64,000 nucleotides of DNA. Origin: Acidobacteriota bacterium (GTDB lineage: Bacteria; Acidobacteriota; Blastocatellia; Pyrinomonadales; Pyrinomonadaceae). This document shows positions 1,795 through 54,755 of the stretch, one piece after another; the first letter of the stretch is position 1; each line of letters starts with the position of its first letter. Position numbers and translations under genes: made by a program. Below the pieces are notes generated by a model. That model saw only the letters and a program-made list of their open reading frames with translations, did not search any database and was not told the DNA's origin. The DNA lies in NCBI GenBank assembly GCA_046765655.1, contig JBKPMX010000013.1, positions 1,815-65,814 on the forward strand, read 5' to 3'.

Positions 1795-4233
1795 ATGGAC
1801 ACATTAATTCAAGACATCCGTTTCGGAATTCGCATGCTGCTGAAGTCGCCGGGGGTTAGCATCATTGCAACGATCGCTCTCGCACTTGGGATTGGTGCCA
1901 ACACCGCCATCTTCAGCGTTGTAAATGCAGTGTTGCTGCGGCCACTGCCATTCCCGAATTCTGAAGCGCTCACTTCTGTATTTGGCACGAACCGAGAGCG
2001 CGGCGTTTTGCACGGCTCGTTTTCATATCCAGATTTTTTCGATCTGCGTGCACAGAACAGCTCGTTTGAGCGCGTGAGTTGTTATCACGACGGTGACTTC
2101 ATTCTGACCCAGCACGGAGAGCCGGCGCGACTAACTGGTGTTATCGCGACGTCAGACCTATTACCACTCCTCGGTGTCGCACCGATGCTCGGACGCGGTT
2201 TCGTACCGGATGAAGATAAACCATCGGCGAGTCGGGTTGTTGTTCTCAGTCATTCCATGTTTGAGAAGTACTTCAATTCTGATGAGAAGATCCTTAACCA
2301 GCCAATCACGCTCGATGGCAAACCCTTCATTGTCGTTGGGGTGATGCCACGTGGATTTCAGTTTCCGATTCAGAATGACTCGGTCGATCTTTGGACCACG
2401 ATCACTGGTGATGCGTCGGGTTCGGACCCGATAACCGCACAGCGTGGAGCGCACTTCTTAAAAGTGATTGGTCGGTTGAAACCTGGTGTAACTGAAGAAA
2501 AAGCCCAGGCGGACGCCGATACCATTGCCGCACGTTTGGCAGAACAGTATCCCGATACTGATTCGCGGCACGGGATGAGTGTTGAGCAAACACTTCGGGC
2601 AATTGTCGGCGATATAAGACCAGCATTACTAATTCTCCTTGGCGCCGTCTCGTTTGTGCTTTTAATCGCGTGCGCGAATGTTGCAAACCTGCTGCTTGCG
2701 CGCGCGATGTCTCGTTACAAAGAGATGGCAATTAGGTCCGCGCTTGGCGCGAGCCGTTGGCGAGTTGTCCGGCAACTATTGATCGAGAGCATACTGCTTT
2801 CTGTGGTCGGTGGCGCAATTGGTTTGCTGTTGGCCGTTTGGTGGTCTGATCTACTCATCGCCTTAGGAAAAGACGATATCCCACGGGCGACACATGTCAG
2901 CCTTGATTGGCGTGTGCTTCTCTACACGTTCGGTATCTCCGTTTTTACGGGAGTTTTATTTGGATTGGCTCCCGCATTCCATTCTGCCAAGAGTGGCCTA
3001 TCCGAGACTTTGAAAGAAGGACGCGGCGCCGGTGCAGGAGCAAGTAAGAACCGACTCCGAGCGAGTCTTGTAGTCAGCGAAGTTGCGATCGCCGTCGTGT
3101 TATTGGTTGGCGCAGGGCTCTTAATTAAGAGCTTGTGGAGGCTTAATACCGTCAACCCTGGCCTGGATCCTAAGAACATTCTCACCTTCAACGTCGCTCT
3201 GCCGGAAGTAAAGTATCCCTCCGAACGGCAGGCCCAATTCTTTAGCACCCTGAAGAAGCAATTGGAATCAATGCCAGGGGTACAGTCGGCGAGTGTCGTC
3301 GATCCGCTGCCCTTGAGTGGCGAGCGATTCAGCCTCTCGTTTGAGATCGACGGCAGGCCTGTCGCCAAAAAAGATCAACCGTCAGCCGATTTCTTCAACG
3401 TCGATCCGGGGTATTTCAAAACCATGAGTATCCCAATGATCAAAGGAAGAGATTTCGACGATCGAGATAAGCACAAATCAGCCCCAGTAATCATAGTCAG
3501 CGAAACGTTTGCGCGGCAGATTTTTCCCGGTGAAGACGTAATCGGGAAAAGAATTAAGCCCGGTATTTCGGTATTCGAAGACGAAGAGACGCCTTGGCGT
3601 GAAATTGTCGGAGTAGTTGGTGACGTTAAGAATCGTGCACTCAATACCGAGCCACGCCCAGTCTATTACGTTCCTCAAGCGCAGGTTCCGTTCAATCAAG
3701 AGATCATTGTGGTGAAAACGACCGGCGATCCACACGCCCTGGTGAAAGCGGCAACGAAAGAGGTCGGAACATTAGACGGAGACCTTGCAGTCTTCGGTGT
3801 GAAGACGATGGAGGAATACATCAGCCGATCCGTTTCCACTCCACGCTTCAATACGACCTTGCTTTCCATCTTCGCAGGAGTTGCGTTGGTGCTGACGGTC
3901 GTTGGCCTTTACGGCGTGATGAGCTATGCGGTGGCCCAACGAACAAACGAAATTGGAATTCGGTTGGCCTTGGGTGCGCAGACCAGAGATGTGCTGTCGT
4001 TGATTATTGGTCAGGGGCTGCGGCTGGTTCTAGTCGGATTAGCAATCGGGCTACTTGGTGCCTTCGCGTTAATGCGCGTGATCTCTGGCCTATTGTTTGG
4101 CGTGACTGCGAAAGATCCAATGACGTTCATCATTGTATCGGTGGTGCTGGCCGTAATCGCATTGCTGGCTTGTTACGTACCCGCACGCCGCGCGACAAGG
4201 GTCGATCCGCTGGAGGCGTTGCGATACGAATAG
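1795..4233 (+). CDS. ADOP-family duplicated orphan permease (member 2)
   Basis: N-term MDTLIQDIRFGIRMLLKSPG and [11 protein letters not shown] (TM1). FtsX hallmarks [15 protein letters not shown] and [15 protein letters not shown]. Tail [17 protein letters not shown]. 812 aa. Confidence 0.9.
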   Translation: MDTLIQDIRFGIRMLLKSPGVSIIATIALALGIGANTAIFSVVNAVLLRPLPFPNSEALTSVFGTNRERGVLHGSFSYPDFFDLRAQNSSFERVSCYHDGDFILTQHGEPARLTGVIATSDLLPLLGVAPMLGRGFVPDEDKPSASRVVVLSHSMFEKYFNSDEKILNQPITLDGKPFIVVGVMPRGFQFPIQNDSVDLWTTITGDASGSDPITAQRGAHFLKVIGRLKPGVTEEKAQADADTIAARLAEQYPDTDSRHGMSVEQTLRAIVGDIRPALLILLGAVSFVLLIACANVANLLLARAMSRYKEMAIRSALGASRWRVVRQLLIESILLSVVGGAIGLLLAVWWSDLLIALGKDDIPRATHVSLDWRVLLYTFGISVFTGVLFGLAPAFHSAKSGLSETLKEGRGAGAGASKNRLRASLVVSEVAIAVVLLVGAGLLIKSLWRLNTVNPGLDPKNILTFNVALPEVKYPSERQAQFFSTLKKQLESMPGVQSASVVDPLPLSGERFSLSFEIDGRPVAKKDQPSADFFNVDPGYFKTMSIPMIKGRDFDDRDKHKSAPVIIVSETFARQIFPGEDVIGKRIKPGISVFEDEETPWREIVGVVGDVKNRALNTEPRPVYYVPQAQVPFNQEIIVVKTTGDPHALVKAATKEVGTLDGDLAVFGVKTMEEYISRSVSTPRFNTTLLSIFAGVALVLTVVGLYGVMSYAVAQRTNEIGIRLALGAQTRDVLSLIIGQGLRLVLVGLAIGLLGAFALMRVISGLLFGVTAKDPMTFIIVSVVLAVIALLACYVPARRATRVDPLEALRYE

Positions 4234-17285: not shown

Positions 17286-19718
17286 ATGCTGCATGACATA
17301 CGTTACGGGCTCCGATTGCTACTGAAGAACTTTGGCTTCAGCCTTATCGTGGTGGTAACCCTCGCGCTAGGCATCGGCGCCAACGCCGCATTGTTCTCGG
17401 TCGTGAACGGCGTCTTGTTGAAACCTCTCCCATTCCCCGAGCCCGAACAACTCATCACGATTCATCAAAGCAAACCAAACTTCGACGCCGGCGCGATGCC
17501 GTATCCAAATTTTTTGGACCTACAGCGTGAGAACAAAACGCTGTCAGCCATGGCTATCTCACGCGGTTACGCATACAGCCTGGTCGGTGTGGGTGAAGCT
17601 CAACGTGTTACTGCACGATTGATCTCAGCAGACTACTTCACAGTGCTTGGGGTAAAGCCGCAACTGGGCCGAGCGTTTGTCCCGGCTGACGACAGCAGCG
17701 CCGCTGATCCGGTCGTACTTATTAGCTCGACGTTGTGGTCGGAGAAGTTTGGCTCCGCAAACGATGTTCTCGAGAAAAGTCTCACGCTCGACAACAAAAG
17801 CTACAAAGTGGTCGGTGTTATTCCGGCCACAGTCCCGTTCACACGTGGCGTTGATGTGTTCGTTCCAATTGCTCAATGGAATAGTCCGGCACTGAAGAGT
17901 CGGAGTGCCGCGTTGGGCATACATGGTATCGGTAGACTCAAACCGGGTGTAACCGTTGCGCAAGCGGACTCAGATCTCAATCGAATAATGCAGGCGCTGG
18001 CTGTTGAGTATCCAAATACAAACAAGGGGAACGGCGCGAAGATCATCCCAATGATGGAGCGCGTCGTGGGCTCTGTTCAGGCAACGCTTTGGACGTTACT
18101 TGCAGCGGTAGGTTTTGTGTTGCTGATCGCGTGCGTGAACGTTAGTAATTTGCTGCTCGCAAAATCAACGAGCAGGACGCGTGAATACGCGATTCGTGCC
18201 GCGCTCGGCGCCAGCCGTTGGCGTTTGCTGCGACAGTCACTGACGGAAACAACGCTGCTCGCGCTCCTGGGTGGCGCGTTTGGTCTCGCTGTTGCCGCGT
18301 GGGGAACCTCCCTCGCGCTGAAAGCTCTGCCGACCGCCTTGCCGCGTGCAAATGAGGTGGTACTTGATCGTCGGGTGGTTCTGTTTACCCTGGGTGTGTC
18401 ACTGCTCACTGGCTTACTGGTTGGCCTCATTCCAGCTCTGAAGACTTCACAACGCCGCTTCAGTCAAACGTTGAAAGAAGGTGGACGCTCAGCGAGCGCC
18501 GGGCGCGCGCGCGTGCAAGGCATCTTCGTCGCCGTTGAGATGGCGCTTGCCTTGGTGCTCCTGATTGGCGCCGGCTTGATGATTCGGACATTGAATGCGT
18601 TGTGGAACGTCGATCCAGGCTTTCGTGCAGAGAACGTGATGACGTTCAGCATCAGCTTACCGCCATGGATGGCGAATTCGAGTCCGCAAACCGTCCGGAC
18701 CGCGCTGCGCGAGCTGAATGAAAAGATCAGGACCACGCCGGGAGTCGAAGCTGTGTCGTTGTCAGATGGGGGGCTTCCGATACAAGGTGCAGATGATTTG
18801 TACTTTTGGATCGAGGGTGAGCCGAAACCTACGAGCACAAGTGATATGCACGATGCGTTCGTCTATACGGTCGAACCGAACTACTTGGATGCGATGAGTA
18901 TTCCACTTAAACGTGGTCGTTTCTTTACCGCGACCGACGATGAACGTGCCACACCAGTCGCGGTTATCGATGAGACATTTGCGAACAAACACTTCAAAGA
19001 TAAAGACCCGATAGGTTCTCGAATACTCATCGGTGAAACTCCACTGCAAATCATTGGTGTTGTCGGACATGTGAAGCAGTGGGGTTTAGACGGCGACACG
19101 CCTGACAGATTACAAGCTCAGCTTTATCTATCATTCCGCGGTATGGCTGATAACAACATGCCGGGAGTTATCGGCGCTGTCGTTCGCTTTAAGGGCGAAG
19201 GTAGCGGCACTGAAGCCTCTCCGTTCTTTGCTTCAGTGCGTAGCGCGATCCAGTCTCAGAACGACCAGAACGTAGTGTCGAATGTGCAGACATTGAATCA
19301 GGTGATCTCCGATTCACTGTCGGAACGACGCTTCTCGATGATCGTTCTCGGCGCGTTTGCAACCGTGGCCCTACTGTTGGCGAGCCTGGGAATTTACGGA
19401 GTCATTTCATACCTCGTCGGTCAGCGTACGCATGAACTCGGAATTCGCGTCGCGCTTGGTGCGGGACGAAATGACATCATCCGGCTCGTGTTGAGTCATG
19501 GGATGAAGATGGCGATTGCCGGGGTCGCGGTTGGTTTGGTGGCGGCGTTTGGGTTGACGCGCTTGATGTCCACGATGCTTTTTGGAGTGAAACCGACAGA
19601 CCCTGTGACGTTTGGGATCATCGCGCTGGTTCTGATGATCGTGGCGTTGTTGGCGTGCTATCTACCAGCGCGACGCGCAACGAAGGTGGATCCATTGACC
19701 GCGTTGAGATCTGAATAA
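17286..19718 (+). CDS. ADOP-family duplicated orphan permease (member 8)
   Basis: MLHDIRYGLRLLLKNFGF. REYAIRAALGASRWR / [15 protein letters not shown]. Tail [17 protein letters not shown]. Confidence 0.9.
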   Translation: MLHDIRYGLRLLLKNFGFSLIVVVTLALGIGANAALFSVVNGVLLKPLPFPEPEQLITIHQSKPNFDAGAMPYPNFLDLQRENKTLSAMAISRGYAYSLVGVGEAQRVTARLISADYFTVLGVKPQLGRAFVPADDSSAADPVVLISSTLWSEKFGSANDVLEKSLTLDNKSYKVVGVIPATVPFTRGVDVFVPIAQWNSPALKSRSAALGIHGIGRLKPGVTVAQADSDLNRIMQALAVEYPNTNKGNGAKIIPMMERVVGSVQATLWTLLAAVGFVLLIACVNVSNLLLAKSTSRTREYAIRAALGASRWRLLRQSLTETTLLALLGGAFGLAVAAWGTSLALKALPTALPRANEVVLDRRVVLFTLGVSLLTGLLVGLIPALKTSQRRFSQTLKEGGRSASAGRARVQGIFVAVEMALALVLLIGAGLMIRTLNALWNVDPGFRAENVMTFSISLPPWMANSSPQTVRTALRELNEKIRTTPGVEAVSLSDGGLPIQGADDLYFWIEGEPKPTSTSDMHDAFVYTVEPNYLDAMSIPLKRGRFFTATDDERATPVAVIDETFANKHFKDKDPIGSRILIGETPLQIIGVVGHVKQWGLDGDTPDRLQAQLYLSFRGMADNNMPGVIGAVVRFKGEGSGTEASPFFASVRSAIQSQNDQNVVSNVQTLNQVISDSLSERRFSMIVLGAFATVALLLASLGIYGVISYLVGQRTHELGIRVALGAGRNDIIRLVLSHGMKMAIAGVAVGLVAAFGLTRLMSTMLFGVKPTDPVTFGIIALVLMIVALLACYLPARRATKVDPLTALRSE

Positions 19719-19909
19719 GCCTGCGAAGCAGGCGGACAGCTTAAAGCCTGGGGCGTCAGCCCCAGGAAGGATTGCGGTTCATTCTCGGCAGCCCGTGAAA
19801 CGGGCGACAGAGAATCACAGTTCTTTCGGCTGCTCCGGCTCGGATTTTGAAAACACCACCAACCTGGGTCTGACGCCCCAGGCTTTATGCTCACGCCTGC
19901 TTCGCAGGC
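19719..19909. mobile_element. palindromic MITE-like element, family B copy 1
   Basis: It starts the base after the member 8 stop. Termini gcctgcgaagcaggc...aagcctggggcgtcagccccagg and cctgggtctgacgccccaggctttatgctcacgcctgcttcgcaggc are inverted. Internal hairpin gcccgtgaaacgggc (19791-19805). Alignable end to end with 52059-52255. Confidence 0.85.
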
Positions 19910-19929
19910 TAACAGGAGGGGAAAAAGAA

Positions 19930-21057
19930 ATGAAACTCAGATCAATTCTCACTGTCGTTCTTATTCTGACATTCGCTTCTTTTGCCGCCGGCCAAAAGAC
20001 TGAGGTGAATCAGGACAGATCCACATGGAATTGGGTACAAAGCGACAACAACAAAAAGATCGAAGTGCGCGTCGAGAACAAAGTTGAATTCAACGACGAC
20101 TATTCCGATGTATCAAACATTCCCTCTGACGGTTCGTTGAAGATTATCGACAGTCGTGGCCCACACAGCATTCGATTGCAAGTTACACGCGGCGGCGCCG
20201 GCGAATTAAAGCGCGAATACTCGGTCGATGGCAGAACGCGCGAGTTTGATAATGAAGCTCGCCAATGGTTACGCGGTGTGTTGTTGCAGGCAGCACGCGA
20301 AGGCGGACTGGATGCGCGCAATCGCGTGCAGCGGATTCTGAATAAGCGTGGCGCGCGTGGCCTGGCAGAAGAGTTGACTTACATCAAGGGAGATTACGTC
20401 CGACGCATTTACTTCGAAGCCTTCCTTCAAGCTCCTGGTCTAAACGATGAAGAATTGAAAACGGCGATTCGCAATGCCTCGCAGACAATCGAGAGCGATT
20501 ACGAACGCGCCCAAATGTCACTGCAAGTAGCGCCCATTTTCGTTTCGAAAGATGCCTTGGTCCCTGATTTTTTTGCCTCCCTGGATCGCCTCAGTTCTGA
20601 TTACGAGCGCCGTCGCACGTTGAGCGGCATTCTCAAGAAAGAACAACCGACTAAAAACGCACTCTCAGCGATGGTGCATTCAGCGCGACTGTTGTCGTCG
20701 GATTATGAGAAAGCCGTGTTTCTGATCGAGGCAGCTGATCGATATCAGTCCGATGATGGTTTGCGCGCCGATTGGTTCAATACGTTGAATTCGCTCAGCT
20801 CTGATTACGAGCATCGCCGAGTTCTTTCGAGCCTCTTAAAAGTTCCGAACCTGAATTCAAATGCACTAGTCGATGCGATGCAGTCAGCGTCGCGGATTGG
20901 GTCTGACTATGAGAAGGCCTCGTTCTTGATTGACGCGCTCGATCGATATCAATCCGAACCGCGACTACGCACTGCACTTGTTAATACCGCGAAGACAATC
21001 AACTCGGAATACGAGCGCGGCCGCGTGCAGAAGAGACTGGACCGAGCCGATTACTAA
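19930..21057 (+). CDS. secreted repeat protein of unknown function (SDYE repeats)
   Basis: The ORF opens at 19795 inside a palindromic element. The likely start is ATG 19930, preceded by AGGAGGGG, giving signal peptide MKLRSILTVVLILTFASFAAGQ. The C-terminal half has alternating repeats LSSDYE[RH]RR.LS..LK and SDYEKA.FLI.A.DRYQS. I recognise no family. Confidence 0.6.
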   Translation: MKLRSILTVVLILTFASFAAGQKTEVNQDRSTWNWVQSDNNKKIEVRVENKVEFNDDYSDVSNIPSDGSLKIIDSRGPHSIRLQVTRGGAGELKREYSVDGRTREFDNEARQWLRGVLLQAAREGGLDARNRVQRILNKRGARGLAEELTYIKGDYVRRIYFEAFLQAPGLNDEELKTAIRNASQTIESDYERAQMSLQVAPIFVSKDALVPDFFASLDRLSSDYERRRTLSGILKKEQPTKNALSAMVHSARLLSSDYEKAVFLIEAADRYQSDDGLRADWFNTLNSLSSDYEHRRVLSSLLKVPNLNSNALVDAMQSASRIGSDYEKASFLIDALDRYQSEPRLRTALVNTAKTINSEYERGRVQKRLDRADY

Positions 21058-49563: not shown

Positions 49564-52032
49564 ATGGGAACCTTATGGCAAGACATCCGTTACGGCGTGC
49601 GCATGTTAAGGAAGACGCCGAGCGTTAGCATTATCGTCGTCATCGCACTCGCCCTCGGCATTGGTGCGAACACTGCAATCTTCAGCGTCGTTAATGCTGT
49701 GCTTCTGCGCCCGCTGCCATACGAGGAAGCGGATCGACTTCTGTTTTTGAACGAGAAGAGCCAGGCGCTTGATGAGATGTCGATCTCGTATCCGAATTAT
49801 CAGGATTGGAAAGCGCAGAACCATGTCTTCGAAGCCATCGGCGTTTATAACCGCCAAAGTTATAACCTCACGGGCGTCGGCGAAGCGGAACGAATTGTCA
49901 CAGGTCAAGTGTCCGCTGATCTTTTCACCGTTTTGCGTGCGCGTCCGGAACTCGGACGTGTCTTCACCAATGATGAAGATAAACCCGGTACTGCCCCTGT
50001 CGTCGTTCTGAGTTATGGCCTGTGGCAACGTCGATTCGGCGGAGACAAAGGCATTCTTAATCAACCGATCAACCTTAACGGAAAAAGCTACACCGTGATT
50101 GGCATCATGCCGGCAAGTTATTTATATCCGAGCCGCGTAGAGATGTGGGTACCAGTGGGCCAGTTATCCGATTCGGCAGCTTGGAAAGAGCGGGGAAATC
50201 ATCCTGGTCTGTATGGAGTTGCGCGCCTGAAACCCGGGATCACTCAGGATCAGGCACAGGCCGATATGGACTTGATTGCAGGAAATCTTGAGAAACAATA
50301 CCCAAACTCAAACCAGGGCACACGAGTTAGGATTCGGCAGATGCTCGAGATCTTTATAAGTGACGTGCGCAGGCCGTTGTGGGTGATCTTTGGAGCTGTC
50401 GGATTTGTATTGCTGATCGCTTGCGCCAACATCGCCAACCTCTTGCTGGCCAGAGCCACAGCGCGGAGAAAAGAAATGGCCATTCGCTCGGCAATGGGCG
50501 CGGGCCGTTGGCGGATTGTGCGCCAGCTTCTTACCGAAAGCATCTTGTTATCGCTTGTCGGCGGCATTATCGGATTGGCACTCGCACGCTTTGGGATCGA
50601 TTTCATACTGAAGATAAGTCCAACGGCAATCCCACGGTCCAGGGAGATTGGACTGGACTGGACCGTCCTTGCATTTACGATCGGCGTGGCGTTCATTACC
50701 GGGATACTTTTCGGAATAATCCCGGCGTTGCAAGCAGGAGAAGTTGACGTCAACGAAACGTTGAAAGAAACAGGCCGCGGCACAAGTGGCCGGCATTGGC
50801 TGCGCAGTTCGCTCGTGGTGGTGGAAGTTGGGACCACGCTAGTCCTCTTGATCGGGGCTGGTTTAATGATCCGAAGTTTCTACAAACTGCAGCAGGTCCA
50901 TCCCGGCTTCTCCTACGAGAATCTGGCTAGCTTCAGCGTGTCGTTACCTGAGAAGAAGTATGTGACTCAAGATCAGCAGGGGGCGTTCTTTAATCGGTTG
51001 TTGGAGGACATTCGAGCAATGCCGGGTGTTGAATCTGCCGCCGTCGCATCTGGCTTACCTCTGGGAAACAATGGTTGGCAAACAGGATTTACTATCGAAG
51101 GTCGTCCGGCACCGGATCCGAAAGACACGCCGCTGATGGAAGCTTGCCTTGTTAGCCCCGATTATTTTCGTGCAATGCAGATTCCTGTGCTGCGTGGTCG
51201 CGTCTTTACTGATCAAGATAATAGAGCGCATGTGAATCCTGAGGCAGAGAAGAAGCTACCGGAAGAAAGACGACCGATGGCGGGCCTGCAGTACCTTGTG
51301 ATTGATGAGTTATTCGCTAAGCGATACTGGCCCAATGAAGATCCGATCGGCAAACGGATCATACTCGGTGGCGCGGATCCTGACAGTCTGAGACTGGAGG
51401 TGATTGGTGTCGTCGGAAGAGTGAAGATGGAAAGTTTGGGTACGGATGACAACCGAGTACAGGGTTATTTTCCGTTTTTGCAGATGCCTGACAATTCAAT
51501 GACCGCGATCATCAAAGCCAGCTCGGATCCAAATCAACTGATCACTTCTGTCAGACAGGCGGTTAAGTCAATCGATCCCGATCAGCCGATCTATAACCCT
51601 CGAACAATGGGAGACATCCGCGCCGAATCGGTCGCGCCGGAACGGTTGAATCTAACGCTACTCGGAATCTTCGCAGGCATCGCGCTAGTCCTGGCGATTG
51701 TTGGTATCTACGGCGTCATGTCTTACTCAGTTACACAACGCACTCACGAAATTGGCATTCGCATGGCCATTGGTGCGCAGCGACGGGATGTGTTCAAGAT
51801 GATCCTGGGGCAGGGAATGAAACTCGCGCTAATTGGGATCGGGATTGGTCTCGTCGGTGCGTTTGCCTTGACGCGATTGATGGCGTCAATGCTCTTCGGA
51901 GTGGAGCCGACCGATGCAACGACCTTTGGGGCTATCTCTGTACTGCTTACCGTTGTTGCGCTGTTAGCGTGCTTTTTGCCGGGTCGCCGCGCGACAAAGG
52001 TCGAGCCAACAGTGTCGTTGCGATACGAGTAG
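49564..52032 (+). CDS. ADOP-family duplicated orphan permease (member 20, insert-bearing subtype)
   Basis: [21 protein letters not shown] with AGGAGA upstream, 21 nt after the previous stop. [15 protein letters not shown] / [15 protein letters not shown]. Divergent tail [17 protein letters not shown]. Extra segment [24 protein letters not shown]. Confidence 0.88.
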
Positions 52033-52058
52033 GGAGTTGGACTTTGATCTTGGTACAA

Positions 52059-52255
52059 GCCTGCGAAGCAGGCGGGAGCATAAAGCCTGGGGCGTGAGCC
52101 CCAGGAAAACTGCGCCTCATTCTCACGAGCCCGTGAAACGGGCGGCAGCGGAAAATCTATCGATCTTTCGCCCGCTCCGCGGGCTCGGCATTCAAAAACG
52201 GTAGACTCCCTGGGGCTGACGCCCCAGGCTTTATGCTCACGCCTGCTTCGCAGGC
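52059..52255. mobile_element. palindromic MITE-like element, family B copy 2
   Basis: Same termini as 19719-19909. The right-hand ~41 nt ctgacgccccaggctttatgctcacgcctgcttcgcaggct are identical in both copies. Internal hairpin gcccgtgaaacgggc at 52129-52143. Confidence 0.85.
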
Positions 52256-52257
52256 TA

Positions 52258-52290
52258 GGAAACACCGCCATCTTCAGTTTAGTCGATGCG
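52258..52290 (+). pseudogene. 33-nt relic of an ADOP 5' coding region
   Basis: gga aac acc gcc atc ttc agt tta gtc gat gcg translates to GNTAIFSLVDA, the family TM1 box ([24 protein letters not shown]). It is out of frame with ATG 52329, has no start codon, and directly abuts element B copy 2. Confidence 0.55.
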
Positions 52291-52328: not shown

Positions 52329-54755
52329 ATGGATACGTTTCTTCAAGACATTCGCTATGGTATACGTTCGTTGTTGAAGCAACCTGCCTTCACAGCGATC
52401 GCAATCATAACCATCGCACTCGGAATCGGAGCTAACACCGCGATCTTCAGTGTCGTCAATGCAGTGATCCTTCGCCCGCTTCCTTACCCTGATGCCGACA
52501 AACTCGTGATGCTGTGGAGCACGACACCAAAGGATGGAAACCAGGAACAGCCATTCTCATTTGCCGACTTCAACGATGTGCGAGCTCAAGCAAAATCTTT
52601 TTCGAACATCGCCGCCGCGTCTCCACTCTGGAATTTCACTTTGACTGGCGGCGGCGAACCAGAACCCATTCAGGGACTCTTCGTGTCGCAGAATCTCTTC
52701 GAAATGTTAGGTGCACGACCGGCAATCGGCCGCACCTTTCTCCCGGATGATGATCGACAGGGCGCGAATCCGGTCGTAGTCATTAGTCACGCTTTGTGGC
52801 AAAGGCGATTCGGTGGCGATTCAAATGTGCTCGGACGTCCGCTGAACGTTAGCGGCGTGAACGCCAGCATCGTCGGAGTTATGCCTGAGGACTTTTATTT
52901 TCTCGAATCCGCCGCGGAACTCTGGGCTCCCCTTTCGCAGAATCAGTTCGCCGGCAGTGCCCGGAACGTCCGACTGCTTTCCGTTGTAGGCCGATTGCAT
53001 GATCGCGTTCCGCTGACGCAGGCCAACGCAGAACTCTCTGCGATTAGCGGCCAACTAGCAGCTCAGTATCCGGATACGAATTCAGGATTCGGCTTGCGCG
53101 CCCTTTCATTGCACCAACAGGTAACTGGCAAAGTGCGCGGGGCGTTGTTGTTGCTTCTCGGCGCAGTCGGGCTAGTTCTCCTGATCGCGTGCGTCAACGT
53201 TGTGAATTTGATGTTGGTGCGCAGCGCGGGCCGAAGCAGAGAGATTGCAGTCCGTGCTGCAGTTGGCGCAGGTCGATTCCGTTTGCTTCGGCAATTGCTT
53301 ACCGAGAGCATTACGTTATCGGTGTTCGGTGGTGCCGCAGGAGCTTTGGTTGCGACTTGGGGCGTGAAACTCCTGCTTACGCTTAATCCCATCGCGCTGC
53401 CTCGCTATAACAAAATCGGAGTTGATTCGACGGTGCTGCTGTTCACGCTGGCGGCGTCAGTGATCACTGGGATCGTCTTTGGCTTAGCACCGGCATGGCG
53501 AATGTTCAAGTTCGATTTAAATTCGGTTCTCAAAGAGGGTGGACGCGGGACCGTCGATACAAGTCAACATCGACTGAGCAGTGCACTCGTTAGTCTGGAG
53601 ATAGCGACGGCGTTTGTGTTGCTGATTGGTGCTGGACTCTTGATTCGAAGTTTTGCACGACTCGTCGACGTAAATCCGGGTTTCGAAACTCAGCACACTC
53701 TTACGATGCAGGTAGGACTTCCGAACGCGAGTTACGGTGAACCGCAAAAGCGAATTGGGTTTGTGCAACAGTTGGAAGCGAATTTGAAAGGGATCCCTGA
53801 TGTCACGTCAGTGGGAATCGTAACCCGTCTGCCCTTGTTAAGCGCTCTTAATAACGTCACGACGTTCCTCACAATCGAAGGCCGGCAGATGCAACCCGGT
53901 GAAAGACCCGAAATTGATTTTCGACGGGCGAGTACGGGTTATTTCGAAGCGATGAACATACCGCTGATCGCCGGGCGATTGGTGACAGAGCAGGATGTTA
54001 CAAACAACACGCATTCGGTTGTTATCAATGAAGCGATGGCCAAGCGTTTTTGGCCGGGCGAAGATCCGATAGGGAAGCATATCAGCACCGCGACAGCCAC
54101 GGGTCAGCAAACTCAGTGGCAAACGATTGTTGGCATCGTCGGAAACGTTCGCCATCTCGGTTTGGATACTGAACCACGTCCTGAACTTTACTATCACTCG
54201 AATACGTCTCCGCCATTCGGGCCAGTGCTGGTGATCCGATCGAAAGGCGATCCGAAGGCACTGATTTCGCTGGCTCGCGCGAAGGTACGAGAGCTTGATG
54301 GCGATGTGCCGGTTTCGAATGTCAACACAATGGATCAACTGGTGGCGCAGTCAGTCGCGCAACGTCGCTTCGGAATGTTTTTGTTGACGGGTTTTGCAGC
54401 GTTGGCGCTGCTGCTTGCAGCTATTGGGATTTATGGTGTCATCAGTTATTCAGTAGCGCAGCGTACGCAGGAGATAGGAGTGCGCATGGCGTTGGGTGCG
54501 CGCACTGCAGACGTACTCAAACTCGTAATGACGAATGGTTTGAAACTGGCCGCGATGGGGTTAGCAATTGGCCTCGTTGGAGCATTTTTATTGACCCGAC
54601 TAATGGCGCGTTTGCTGTTCCACGTTGGACCAACCGACGCGGTTACGTTTGCGAGTGTCTCCGTCGGCTTGTTGCTGGTAGCATTTCTCGCCTGCTATCT
54701 TCCGGCACGCCGCGCCACGAAAGTGGATCCTTTGGTGGCGCTGCGGTGCGAATGA
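52329..54755 (+). CDS. ADOP-family duplicated orphan permease (member 21, last of array)
   Basis: [21 protein letters not shown] with AGGAG upstream. [15 protein letters not shown] / [15 protein letters not shown]. Tail [17 protein letters not shown]. Confidence 0.9.

Follow-up and report, generated by a model that had tools for sequence, protein, structure and literature searches.

The ~195-bp element that occurs twice in the DNA analysed here is, with a probability that we put at about 80%, a non-autonomous, internally deleted derivative of a ~690-bp IS200-type transposase unit, its terminal inverted repeats (TIRs) being of the Acido-Lenti-1 type with their 3' ends pointing outward. The window, by which we mean the whole stretch of 64,000 nucleotides that was analysed, lies on contig C13 of a 4.39-Mb Pyrinomonadaceae assembly that consists of 203 contigs and is estimated to be 82% complete. 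As for a mobile element, copies are dispersed to unrelated intergenic sites, are present at some orthologous sites and absent from others, and lack a target-site duplication.

An earlier, sequence-only reading of the window had reported that two stretches align end to end, share an identical right terminus, contain three kinds of small hairpin and each start at or shortly after the stop codon of an ADOP gene, and all of this holds for the limits given in Table 1. The two copies are 81% identical over the element alone (BLAST), or 86% by mean column identity in an alignment of 19700-19930 with 52040-52275 that includes some flank, and their right-end 42 nt are the same. The first base of copy 1 is the final A in the TAA stop codon of ORF 17286-19718, and copy 2 starts 25 nt past the stop of ORF 49564-52032. 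The limits of copy 1 are fixed, since soil metagenome contigs that carry other copies diverge from it exactly at 19718 and 19910. The key structural fact, which the sequence-only reading left unstated, is that the left and right ends of each copy are reverse complements of one another; in copy 2 this inverted repeat covers 48 nt at 96% complementarity, and copy 1 has it as 17 + 29 nt. Each such TIR, with the sequence GGGGCGTN, consists of hairpin 1 and hairpin 2 (general form CCTGGGGC-GTNA-GCCCCAGG) joined by the conserved linker AGCATAAAG. With the inner hairpin 3 added on either side, the layout of the element is a mirrored set of three hairpins about a short centre.

Table 1. Positions in the window of the two copies of the element, their ends and their hairpins
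Feature	Position	Strand	Basis or remark
Element copy 1 (193 bp)	19718..19910	.	contigs of other copies diverge at both limits; ortholog in G015:C528
Copy 1, left TIR (Acido-Lenti-1-type double hairpin)	19718..19766	-	RF01687, 27.2 bits at 19730-19766 (-); TIR profile match (nhmmer)
Copy 1, right TIR	19863..19910	+	RF01687, 24.2 bits at 19863-19910 (+); terminator-like hairpin, then CTTTATGCT
Copy 1, hairpins 1 and 1', GCCTGC-GAA-GCAGGC	19719-19733 and 19895-19909		
Copy 1, hairpins 2 and 2', CCTGGGGC-GTCA-GCCCCAGG	19747-19766 and 19863-19882		one mismatch in 2'
Copy 1, inner hairpin 3, GCCCG-TGAAA-CGGGC, then GACAG	19791..19805	.	in full units just upstream of the transposase start codon
Copy 1, inner hairpin 3' (right-hand), decayed	19826..19843	.	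intact in the G015 ortholog and in copy 2
Element copy 2 (199 bp), orientation as copy 1	52058..52256	.	alignment and inverted repeat
Copy 2, left TIR	52058..52105	-	RF01687, 34.6 bits (L002 1500-1547); 48-nt inverted repeat, 96%
Copy 2, right TIR	52209..52256	+	RF01687, 33.4 bits (L002 1651-1698); terminator-like hairpin
Copy 2, inner hairpin 3, GCCCG-TGAAA-CGGGC	52129..52143	.	
Copy 2, inner hairpin 3', GCCCGC-TCC-GCGGGC	52170..52184	.	

Two ORF calls touch the copies. A mechanical call places a 420-aa ORF at 19795-21057 (+) with its GTG start inside copy 1; just past copy 1 there is a ribosome-binding site, AGGAGGGG, at 19914-19921, followed by an ATG at 19930. On the minus strand a 175-aa ORF (51744-52271) runs across copy 2. 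Both calls look like annotation artefacts of the repeat.

Which structure of the element is conserved? Folded as single strands, copy 1 and copy 2 alike give z = -13 against shuffles, and together with the 53 matches that a profile of the 48-nt end (nhmmer) finds in the genome this argues that the hairpin structure is not due to chance. In the minimum-free-energy fold both TIRs pair into a single long hairpin. What is conserved, as the sequence-only reading had supposed from the two copies, is each local hairpin and not this long-range pairing. In a set of 119 distinct ends from many genomes, 97.7% of the stem cells are paired, and changes on both sides are found in 7 of 14 pairs, a level reached by none of 500 shuffles; the stem variants include GCCTGC/GCAGGC, GCCCGC/GCGGGC, GTCCGC/GCGGAC and GCGTGC/GCACGC. 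The two arms of 46 elements differ at 4.3% of stem positions, with 1.3% of local pairs broken, and half of the stem pairs that differ between arms (18/36) are compensated within each arm. Loops and linker show 13.8% differences between arms.

The ends are related to a family that is already on file. Both ends of both copies match Acido-Lenti-1 (Rfam RF01687) over the whole model (positions 1-46), and the 3' end of the motif always faces outward. The gathering score of RF01687 is 37 bits. The window copies, with 24.2-34.6 bits, fall below it, a sister copy in the same genome (C134:4518-4565) lies above it with 39.2 bits, and sister and transposase-flanking copies score 38-51 bits, so that the window copies are sub-threshold homologues of RF01687 members. 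The two share an 8-bp stem with a 4-nt loop, a linker of ~12 nt and a 5-bp stem with a 3-nt loop, as well as the phylum, and some of the Rfam seed sequences also occur in (-,+) pairs 185-198 bp apart. They differ in the part assigned to the motif, since RF01687 is filed as an sRNA of function not known, whereas here the motif makes up the ends of a DNA element linked to a transposase. Acido-Lenti-1 was described from 89 sequences, rated 'COV' for covariation and given no function, the one association noted being that some Lentisphaerae examples are close to group II introns (Weinberg et al. 2010, PMC2864571). The Rfam entry is of type 'Gene; sRNA' and in 2026 still reads 'of unknown function'. 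Our literature search, an incomplete one, found no paper that links Acido-Lenti-1 to a transposase, and two pattern scans with Lentisphaera seeds returned nothing in the genome collection. Of the two outcomes that the sequence-only reading counted against itself, a repeat already catalogued and stems free of compensatory changes, the first applies to the terminal module; the second does not, since the stems covary and compensated changes are present.

The 53 matches in the genome, collected as that reading had proposed, form 24 inward-facing TIR pairs, 19 of them 193-204 bp and five 216-391 bp long, and a few further matches are solo ends or lie at contig breaks; no pair longer than 391 bp occurs in the genome. 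The other copies are ~70-83% alike to the two in the window, and near-identical pairs of copies were not found in the genome. All 24 paired copies lie between called ORFs at unrelated loci, with three of them overlapping an ORF end by 1-22 nt. Their flanks have a slight bias, mirrored on the two sides, towards C-T-K ahead of the element and its complement behind it. Y1 transposition makes no target-site duplication, and the finding that no direct repeat of at least 3 bp flanks the element at 23 copies matches this mode of movement. An apparent TA target duplication (5 cases versus 1.4 expected) was rejected, because an inverted repeat that continues one base outward explains the excess.

One might instead take the element for an ordinary MITE with TIRs and a target-site duplication, whose parent was a DDE-type insertion sequence. 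The 48-bp TIRs, the small size, the many dispersed copies and the lack of coding capacity would all suit such an origin. The missing duplication does not, nor does the size of the largest TIR pair in the genome, 391 bp, and between these TIRs no gene was found other than that for a Y1/HUH transposase, described below. We give the DDE origin next to no probability.

About ten copies in the genome, including C134:7626-7987, C185:15415-15654 and C152:13515-13751, carry an extra outer inverted module of ~21 bp, GCTTTGCACAAAAAGTCGCTG, which lengthens the inverted ends to ~70 bp. It was considered whether the module is an independent palindromic target that was split by insertion; this idea was dropped, since the module almost never occurs apart from the element. 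It accompanies only 2 of 174 TIR flanks in other genomes, and we read it as a lineage-specific extension of the ends.

What gene would such ends belong to? A Pfam Y1_Tnp search of the genome gave a weak match inside the 391-bp pair (C158:17878-18268), which is a frameshifted C-terminal remnant of a Y1 transposase. The 82%-complete assembly holds no intact cognate transposase gene, only remnants, on C158 and C107. Full units are found in other assemblies. In a Pyrinomonadaceae MAG (L088) a 148-aa ORF, P0002, lies between inward-facing ends in a unit of 676 bp, and two further loci (L084 and L085) have intact genes between TIRs, similar to L088. Such a unit starts with the 48-bp double-hairpin TIR, continues with ~90 bp that hold a third hairpin and with the 148-aa Y1/HUH gene, and ends with ~60 bp that hold the mirror image of the third hairpin and with the inverted TIR, for a total of ~690 bp. 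The left ~105 bp and the right ~105 bp of L088 carry hairpins 1, 2 and 3 and the feet GACAGC / GCTGTC, and their order is the one seen in the two halves of the element. The element is thus the unit minus its gene.

The pairing of gene and ends extends to many genomes. A scan of species-representative genomes returned 382 stretches with relatives of P0002, and the best 80 loci were examined. Among these best 80 of 382, inward-facing TIRs lie within 400 bp on both sides of the gene in 50, on one side in 22 and on neither side in 8, and in most of the 80 these TIRs are the sole TIR matches in 3.4 kb. Nearly all of these 80 loci are labelled Blastocatellia or Acidobacteriota MAG, and four are labelled Heliomicrobium/Heliobacteriaceae. 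The motifs flanking the gene exceed the RF01687 gathering score at L271 (50.7/51.2 bits), L249 (39.6/41.2 bits) and L095 (39.8/39.6 bits). A 21-mer from the Koribacter-type hairpin in the Rfam seed alignment served as an independent seed. Of the 80 loci that it returned, six have a Y1 gene beside the motif, in five cases 45-80 bp away; at L202, one of the six, a truncated Y1 gene lies ~400 bp from the motif. A Planctomycetaceae MAG (L253) has a full motif(-)-gene-motif(+) unit, whose protein is 51% identical to P0002, and the same MAG has eight gene-less (-,+) doublets too.

Across 60 genomes of the genus, which are related to one another and incomplete, the link between a close cognate gene and a high number of copies is loose. 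Among the matches listed, such a gene is found in about 9 of 18 high-copy genomes, and several of the 60 have the gene with few detectable copies among the matches listed. The number of close cognate copies per genome runs from 0 to 3, and multiple copies within one genome differ markedly in sequence. G048 and G054, both flagged as unpublished, enter genome tallies only, and no individual claim rests on either. Two other Y1_Tnp genes of our genome were considered as cognates and rejected, having no RF01687 match beside them and being only ~34% identical to the cognate protein; one (G000:C193:17271-17756; L051 1372-1860, -) encodes 162 aa and the other (G000:C42:3238-3897; L052 1381-2040, +) 219 aa. 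They may serve other palindromic repeat families of the genome.

P0002 itself matches Pfam Y1_Tnp (PF01797) with 89.8 bits, and no other domain was found in its 148 aa. It passes the NCBIfam IS200 model NF033573 (72 bits, cut-off 55) and fails the NCBIfam RAYT model NF047646 (20.3 bits, cut-off 80). Its closest solved structures are ISDra2 TnpA (2xm3) and IS608 TnpA, with whose residues the HUH motif DHIHLL (D54-H55-I56-H57) and Y115 of RYIARQ align. The protein has the Y-motif Y---Q--HH (RYIARQKEHH) and a conserved C-terminal tail, and by printed signature alone it would fit subclass 1.2 of Quentin et al. (2018, PMC6006769), which is close to the IS200 transposases and generally without structured ends. 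Relatives of P0002 go by the public names 'IS200/IS605 family transposase' and 'REP element-mobilizing transposase RayT'.

How does this system compare with those already described? In its working it resembles REPIN/RAYT systems and TIRtrons. With the REPIN/RAYT system it shares two inverted hairpin modules that fold, with their spacer, into one long hairpin (Bertels and Rainey 2011, PMC3116915; E. coli TnpA-REP), a Y1 gene flanked by the same modules in inverted orientation (here in relatives, our own genome having only a remnant inside a TIR pair), many gene-less doublets with few genes, intergenic location, and the persistence of some copies at orthologous sites of different species. It departs from REPIN/RAYT in having an IS200-type protein, two or three hairpins over 48-105 bp per end in place of a single REP of ~25 bp, and an element of ~195 bp; GTAG / CTAC is absent from the 48-nt consensus. 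By these two tests, the RAYT profile, which P0002 fails, and the GTAG tag, which is lacking, the system falls outside the RAYT family.

The TIRtrons, or TIRYTs, are similar in that a Y1 gene lies between long, partly self-complementary TIRs of a repeated family that also occurs as dimers (PMC3733652). Such Y1 genes with repeated TIRs were described in Koribacter versatilis and Rhodopirellula baltica (Di Nocera et al. 2013, PMC3733652), and both organisms also supply seed sequences of Acido-Lenti-1. Every one of the 26 described TIRYTs belongs to a subclass of class 2, and 20 are placed in 2.1, which has a helix-turn-helix tail (Quentin et al. 2018, PMC6006769). Unlike that main group, the present family has no GGGGWSAS in its TIR, and its 148-aa protein has the Y---Q--HH signature of subclass 1.2. 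With the IS200 group of IS200/IS605 and with PATEs it has in common a single Y1/HUH transposase of ~150 aa, subterminal hairpins, a unit of ~700 bp, the lack of a target-site duplication and the existence of gene-less derivatives. The canonical IS200/IS605 ends, however, differ between left and right on one strand and form no TIRs, whereas here there are 48-bp TIRs with 96% complementarity. The Y-motif, the short core and the conserved, family-specific C-terminal tail are as in subclass 1.2. Members of that subclass are mostly without terminal secondary structures and come mostly from Cyanobacteria and Bacteroidetes (Quentin et al. 2018, PMC6006769); in contrast to that description, the present system has structured inverted ends and a repeat population, and belongs to Acidobacteriota and Planctomycetota.

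Could the motif nevertheless be, in the first place, a structured RNA, that is, an sRNA gene or a cis-acting RNA for which the repetition at the DNA level is secondary? Both stems covary in our ends and in the Rfam seed alignment, and the motif was rated 'COV' by Weinberg et al. (2010, PMC2864571), but hairpin covariation is expected equally for single-stranded DNA hairpins that a Y1 transposase reads. There is a slight excess of would-be G-U mismatches in the Rfam orientation, 20 versus 11, a bias too weak for deciding the strand. The motif occurs in inverted pairs, so that each strand has one 'sense' copy, and it flanks the transposase gene in fixed orientation. At neither window copy was a promoter-like site found. 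The only RNA-library contig found, from a soil metatranscriptome, covers 19956-20107 with 1 mismatch in 152 nt, which is the start of the gene downstream of copy 1 and not the element; as the one sign that the copy 1 locus is expressed it is a hint, and DNA carry-over is possible. We consider a primary RNA role improbable.

Rather, we lean towards the broader proposal that the whole Acido-Lenti-1 family is a DNA end-recognition module of an IS200-like Y1 clade (fitting subclass 1.2) and not primarily an RNA, and that its gene-less doublets form long-lived, REPIN-like populations in Acidobacteriota and Planctomycetota, in which single copies are under purifying selection in place. If so, an abundant orphan Rfam family would gain a testable identity, and its 'sRNA' annotations would be marking the termini of a DNA element, either mobile or domesticated. 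The REPIN/RAYT concept of few genes that maintain many gene-less doublets would be extended to an IS200-type enzyme and to soil phyla that are hardly studied. A 148-aa protein and a 48-nt end would also make a simple system for how a Y1 enzyme reads multi-hairpin inverted ends.

Enzymes of the Y1/HUH family recognise DNA hairpins in single-stranded DNA. The sequence-only reading had offered either a structured RNA or a protein-bound DNA element, and the second option agrees best with the finding that, in relatives, a Y1/HUH transposase gene lies between the hairpin ends. By analogy with the IS200/IS605 TnpA proteins and the REP-associated transposases, the transposase would bind the hairpins in single-stranded DNA, for example in the lagging-strand template, its catalytic tyrosine would cut beside them, and the segment would move without target duplication. 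The gene-less ~195-bp copies retain both hairpin sets and so could be mobilised in trans. The population in the present genome looks old, or else its gene lies in the unassembled part.

Do inserted copies stay where they are? In another species of the genus (G015), two of five compared sites are filled and three are not. The filled ones are those of window copy 1 (G015:C528) and of the copy at C35:6854 (G015:C318); the copies on C37, C200 and C66 were not found at the orthologous G015 sites. The C35 site appears empty in three further genomes (G046, G047 and G042), to judge from a shorter gap between matching flanks, which was aligned for G047 only. Intergenic DNA at the empty sites is too diverged to define a clean empty site, and neither a junction left by excision or insertion nor a cleavage site came to light. 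At the empty site of C37:15809-16002 (G015:C132; L188 ~2990-3027) there are 37 bp with AGCCT-N9-AGGCT, which resembles the outermost bases of the two ends of the element and could be a footprint, a relic or chance. The G015 site of C66:7464-7662 (G015:C67; L322 ~416-872) holds a stretch of similar length that is rich in short repeats of the CAGAGAC/GCAGAGA type.

Where a copy has stayed in place, its ends can be strongly conserved. Copy 1 and its G015 ortholog are identical at 49 of 49 positions in the left TIR and at 47 of 48 in the right TIR, and an unusual linker variant is common to both; in the same pair identity is lower elsewhere, at 80% in the core, 71-77% in the flanking coding DNA, and 42% and 56% at third codon positions. 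The C35 copy and its ortholog differ at more positions, with compensatory changes in hairpins 1, 2 and 3. Retention of 96 of 97 TIR bases in place is more than a passive selfish remnant predicts. Conservation of this kind suggests that the hairpins are under selection or that the copies have been homogenised, two explanations that two ortholog pairs cannot separate. That one inserted copy has been kept almost unchanged across species hints at a host-level role.

What might such a role be? The hairpin ends might be kept by selection for a REP-like host function, such as transcription termination, protection of mRNA 3' ends or binding of a nucleoid protein, a proposal that is compatible with descent from the transposase unit. 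A crude ORF map puts about 22 of the 24 copies no more than ~100 nt away from a flanking ORF's 3' end; a single copy has divergent genes on its two sides. Copy 1 occupies the gap from a stop codon to the ribosome-binding site of the next gene. A loose terminator scan finds hairpin 2 with CTTTATGCT terminator-like, facing outward on both strands, but the T-tract is weak (3 T), and one soil metatranscriptome gave no transcript ends or RNA coverage. The contrast between the TIRs and their surroundings also favours a host function, yet it comes from one ortholog pair, the second pair having many, though compensated, changes, and gene conversion among copies could equally keep the ends alike. We regard selection for a host function as possible though doubtful, and a putative REP-like side function at 3' ends as plausible.

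The sequence-only reading had gone further and suggested that the element takes part in rearrangement of the ADOP permease array, for instance by providing recombination sites. Two direct copies, 32 kb apart, with 42 nt of identical end and each following an ADOP stop codon, would seem to invite this idea. The array, however, fills the window, so that any intergenic insertion there adjoins ADOP genes, and of the 24 copies, at unrelated loci, the two in the window are the only ones with ADOP neighbours. In another species the site of copy 1 is syntenic and occupied, which leaves no rearrangement tied to copy 1. Nor were array breakpoints or deletions bounded by copies seen in the genomes compared, a check that the reading had proposed, and the supposed ADOP relic after copy 2 is a full-length ADOP-like ORF of 808 aa (52329-54755). 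A role in rearranging the array is highly improbable, and for the window this means that the repeat is no longer suggested as something special to the ADOP permeases.

The genome contains other palindromic sequence as well. An AT-rich, near-perfect hairpin of ~106 nt (L016 597-702; G000:C35:895-1000) gave a spurious, sub-threshold match to MIR9560, a plant microRNA (40.9 bits versus 74), and is probably another palindromic repeat.
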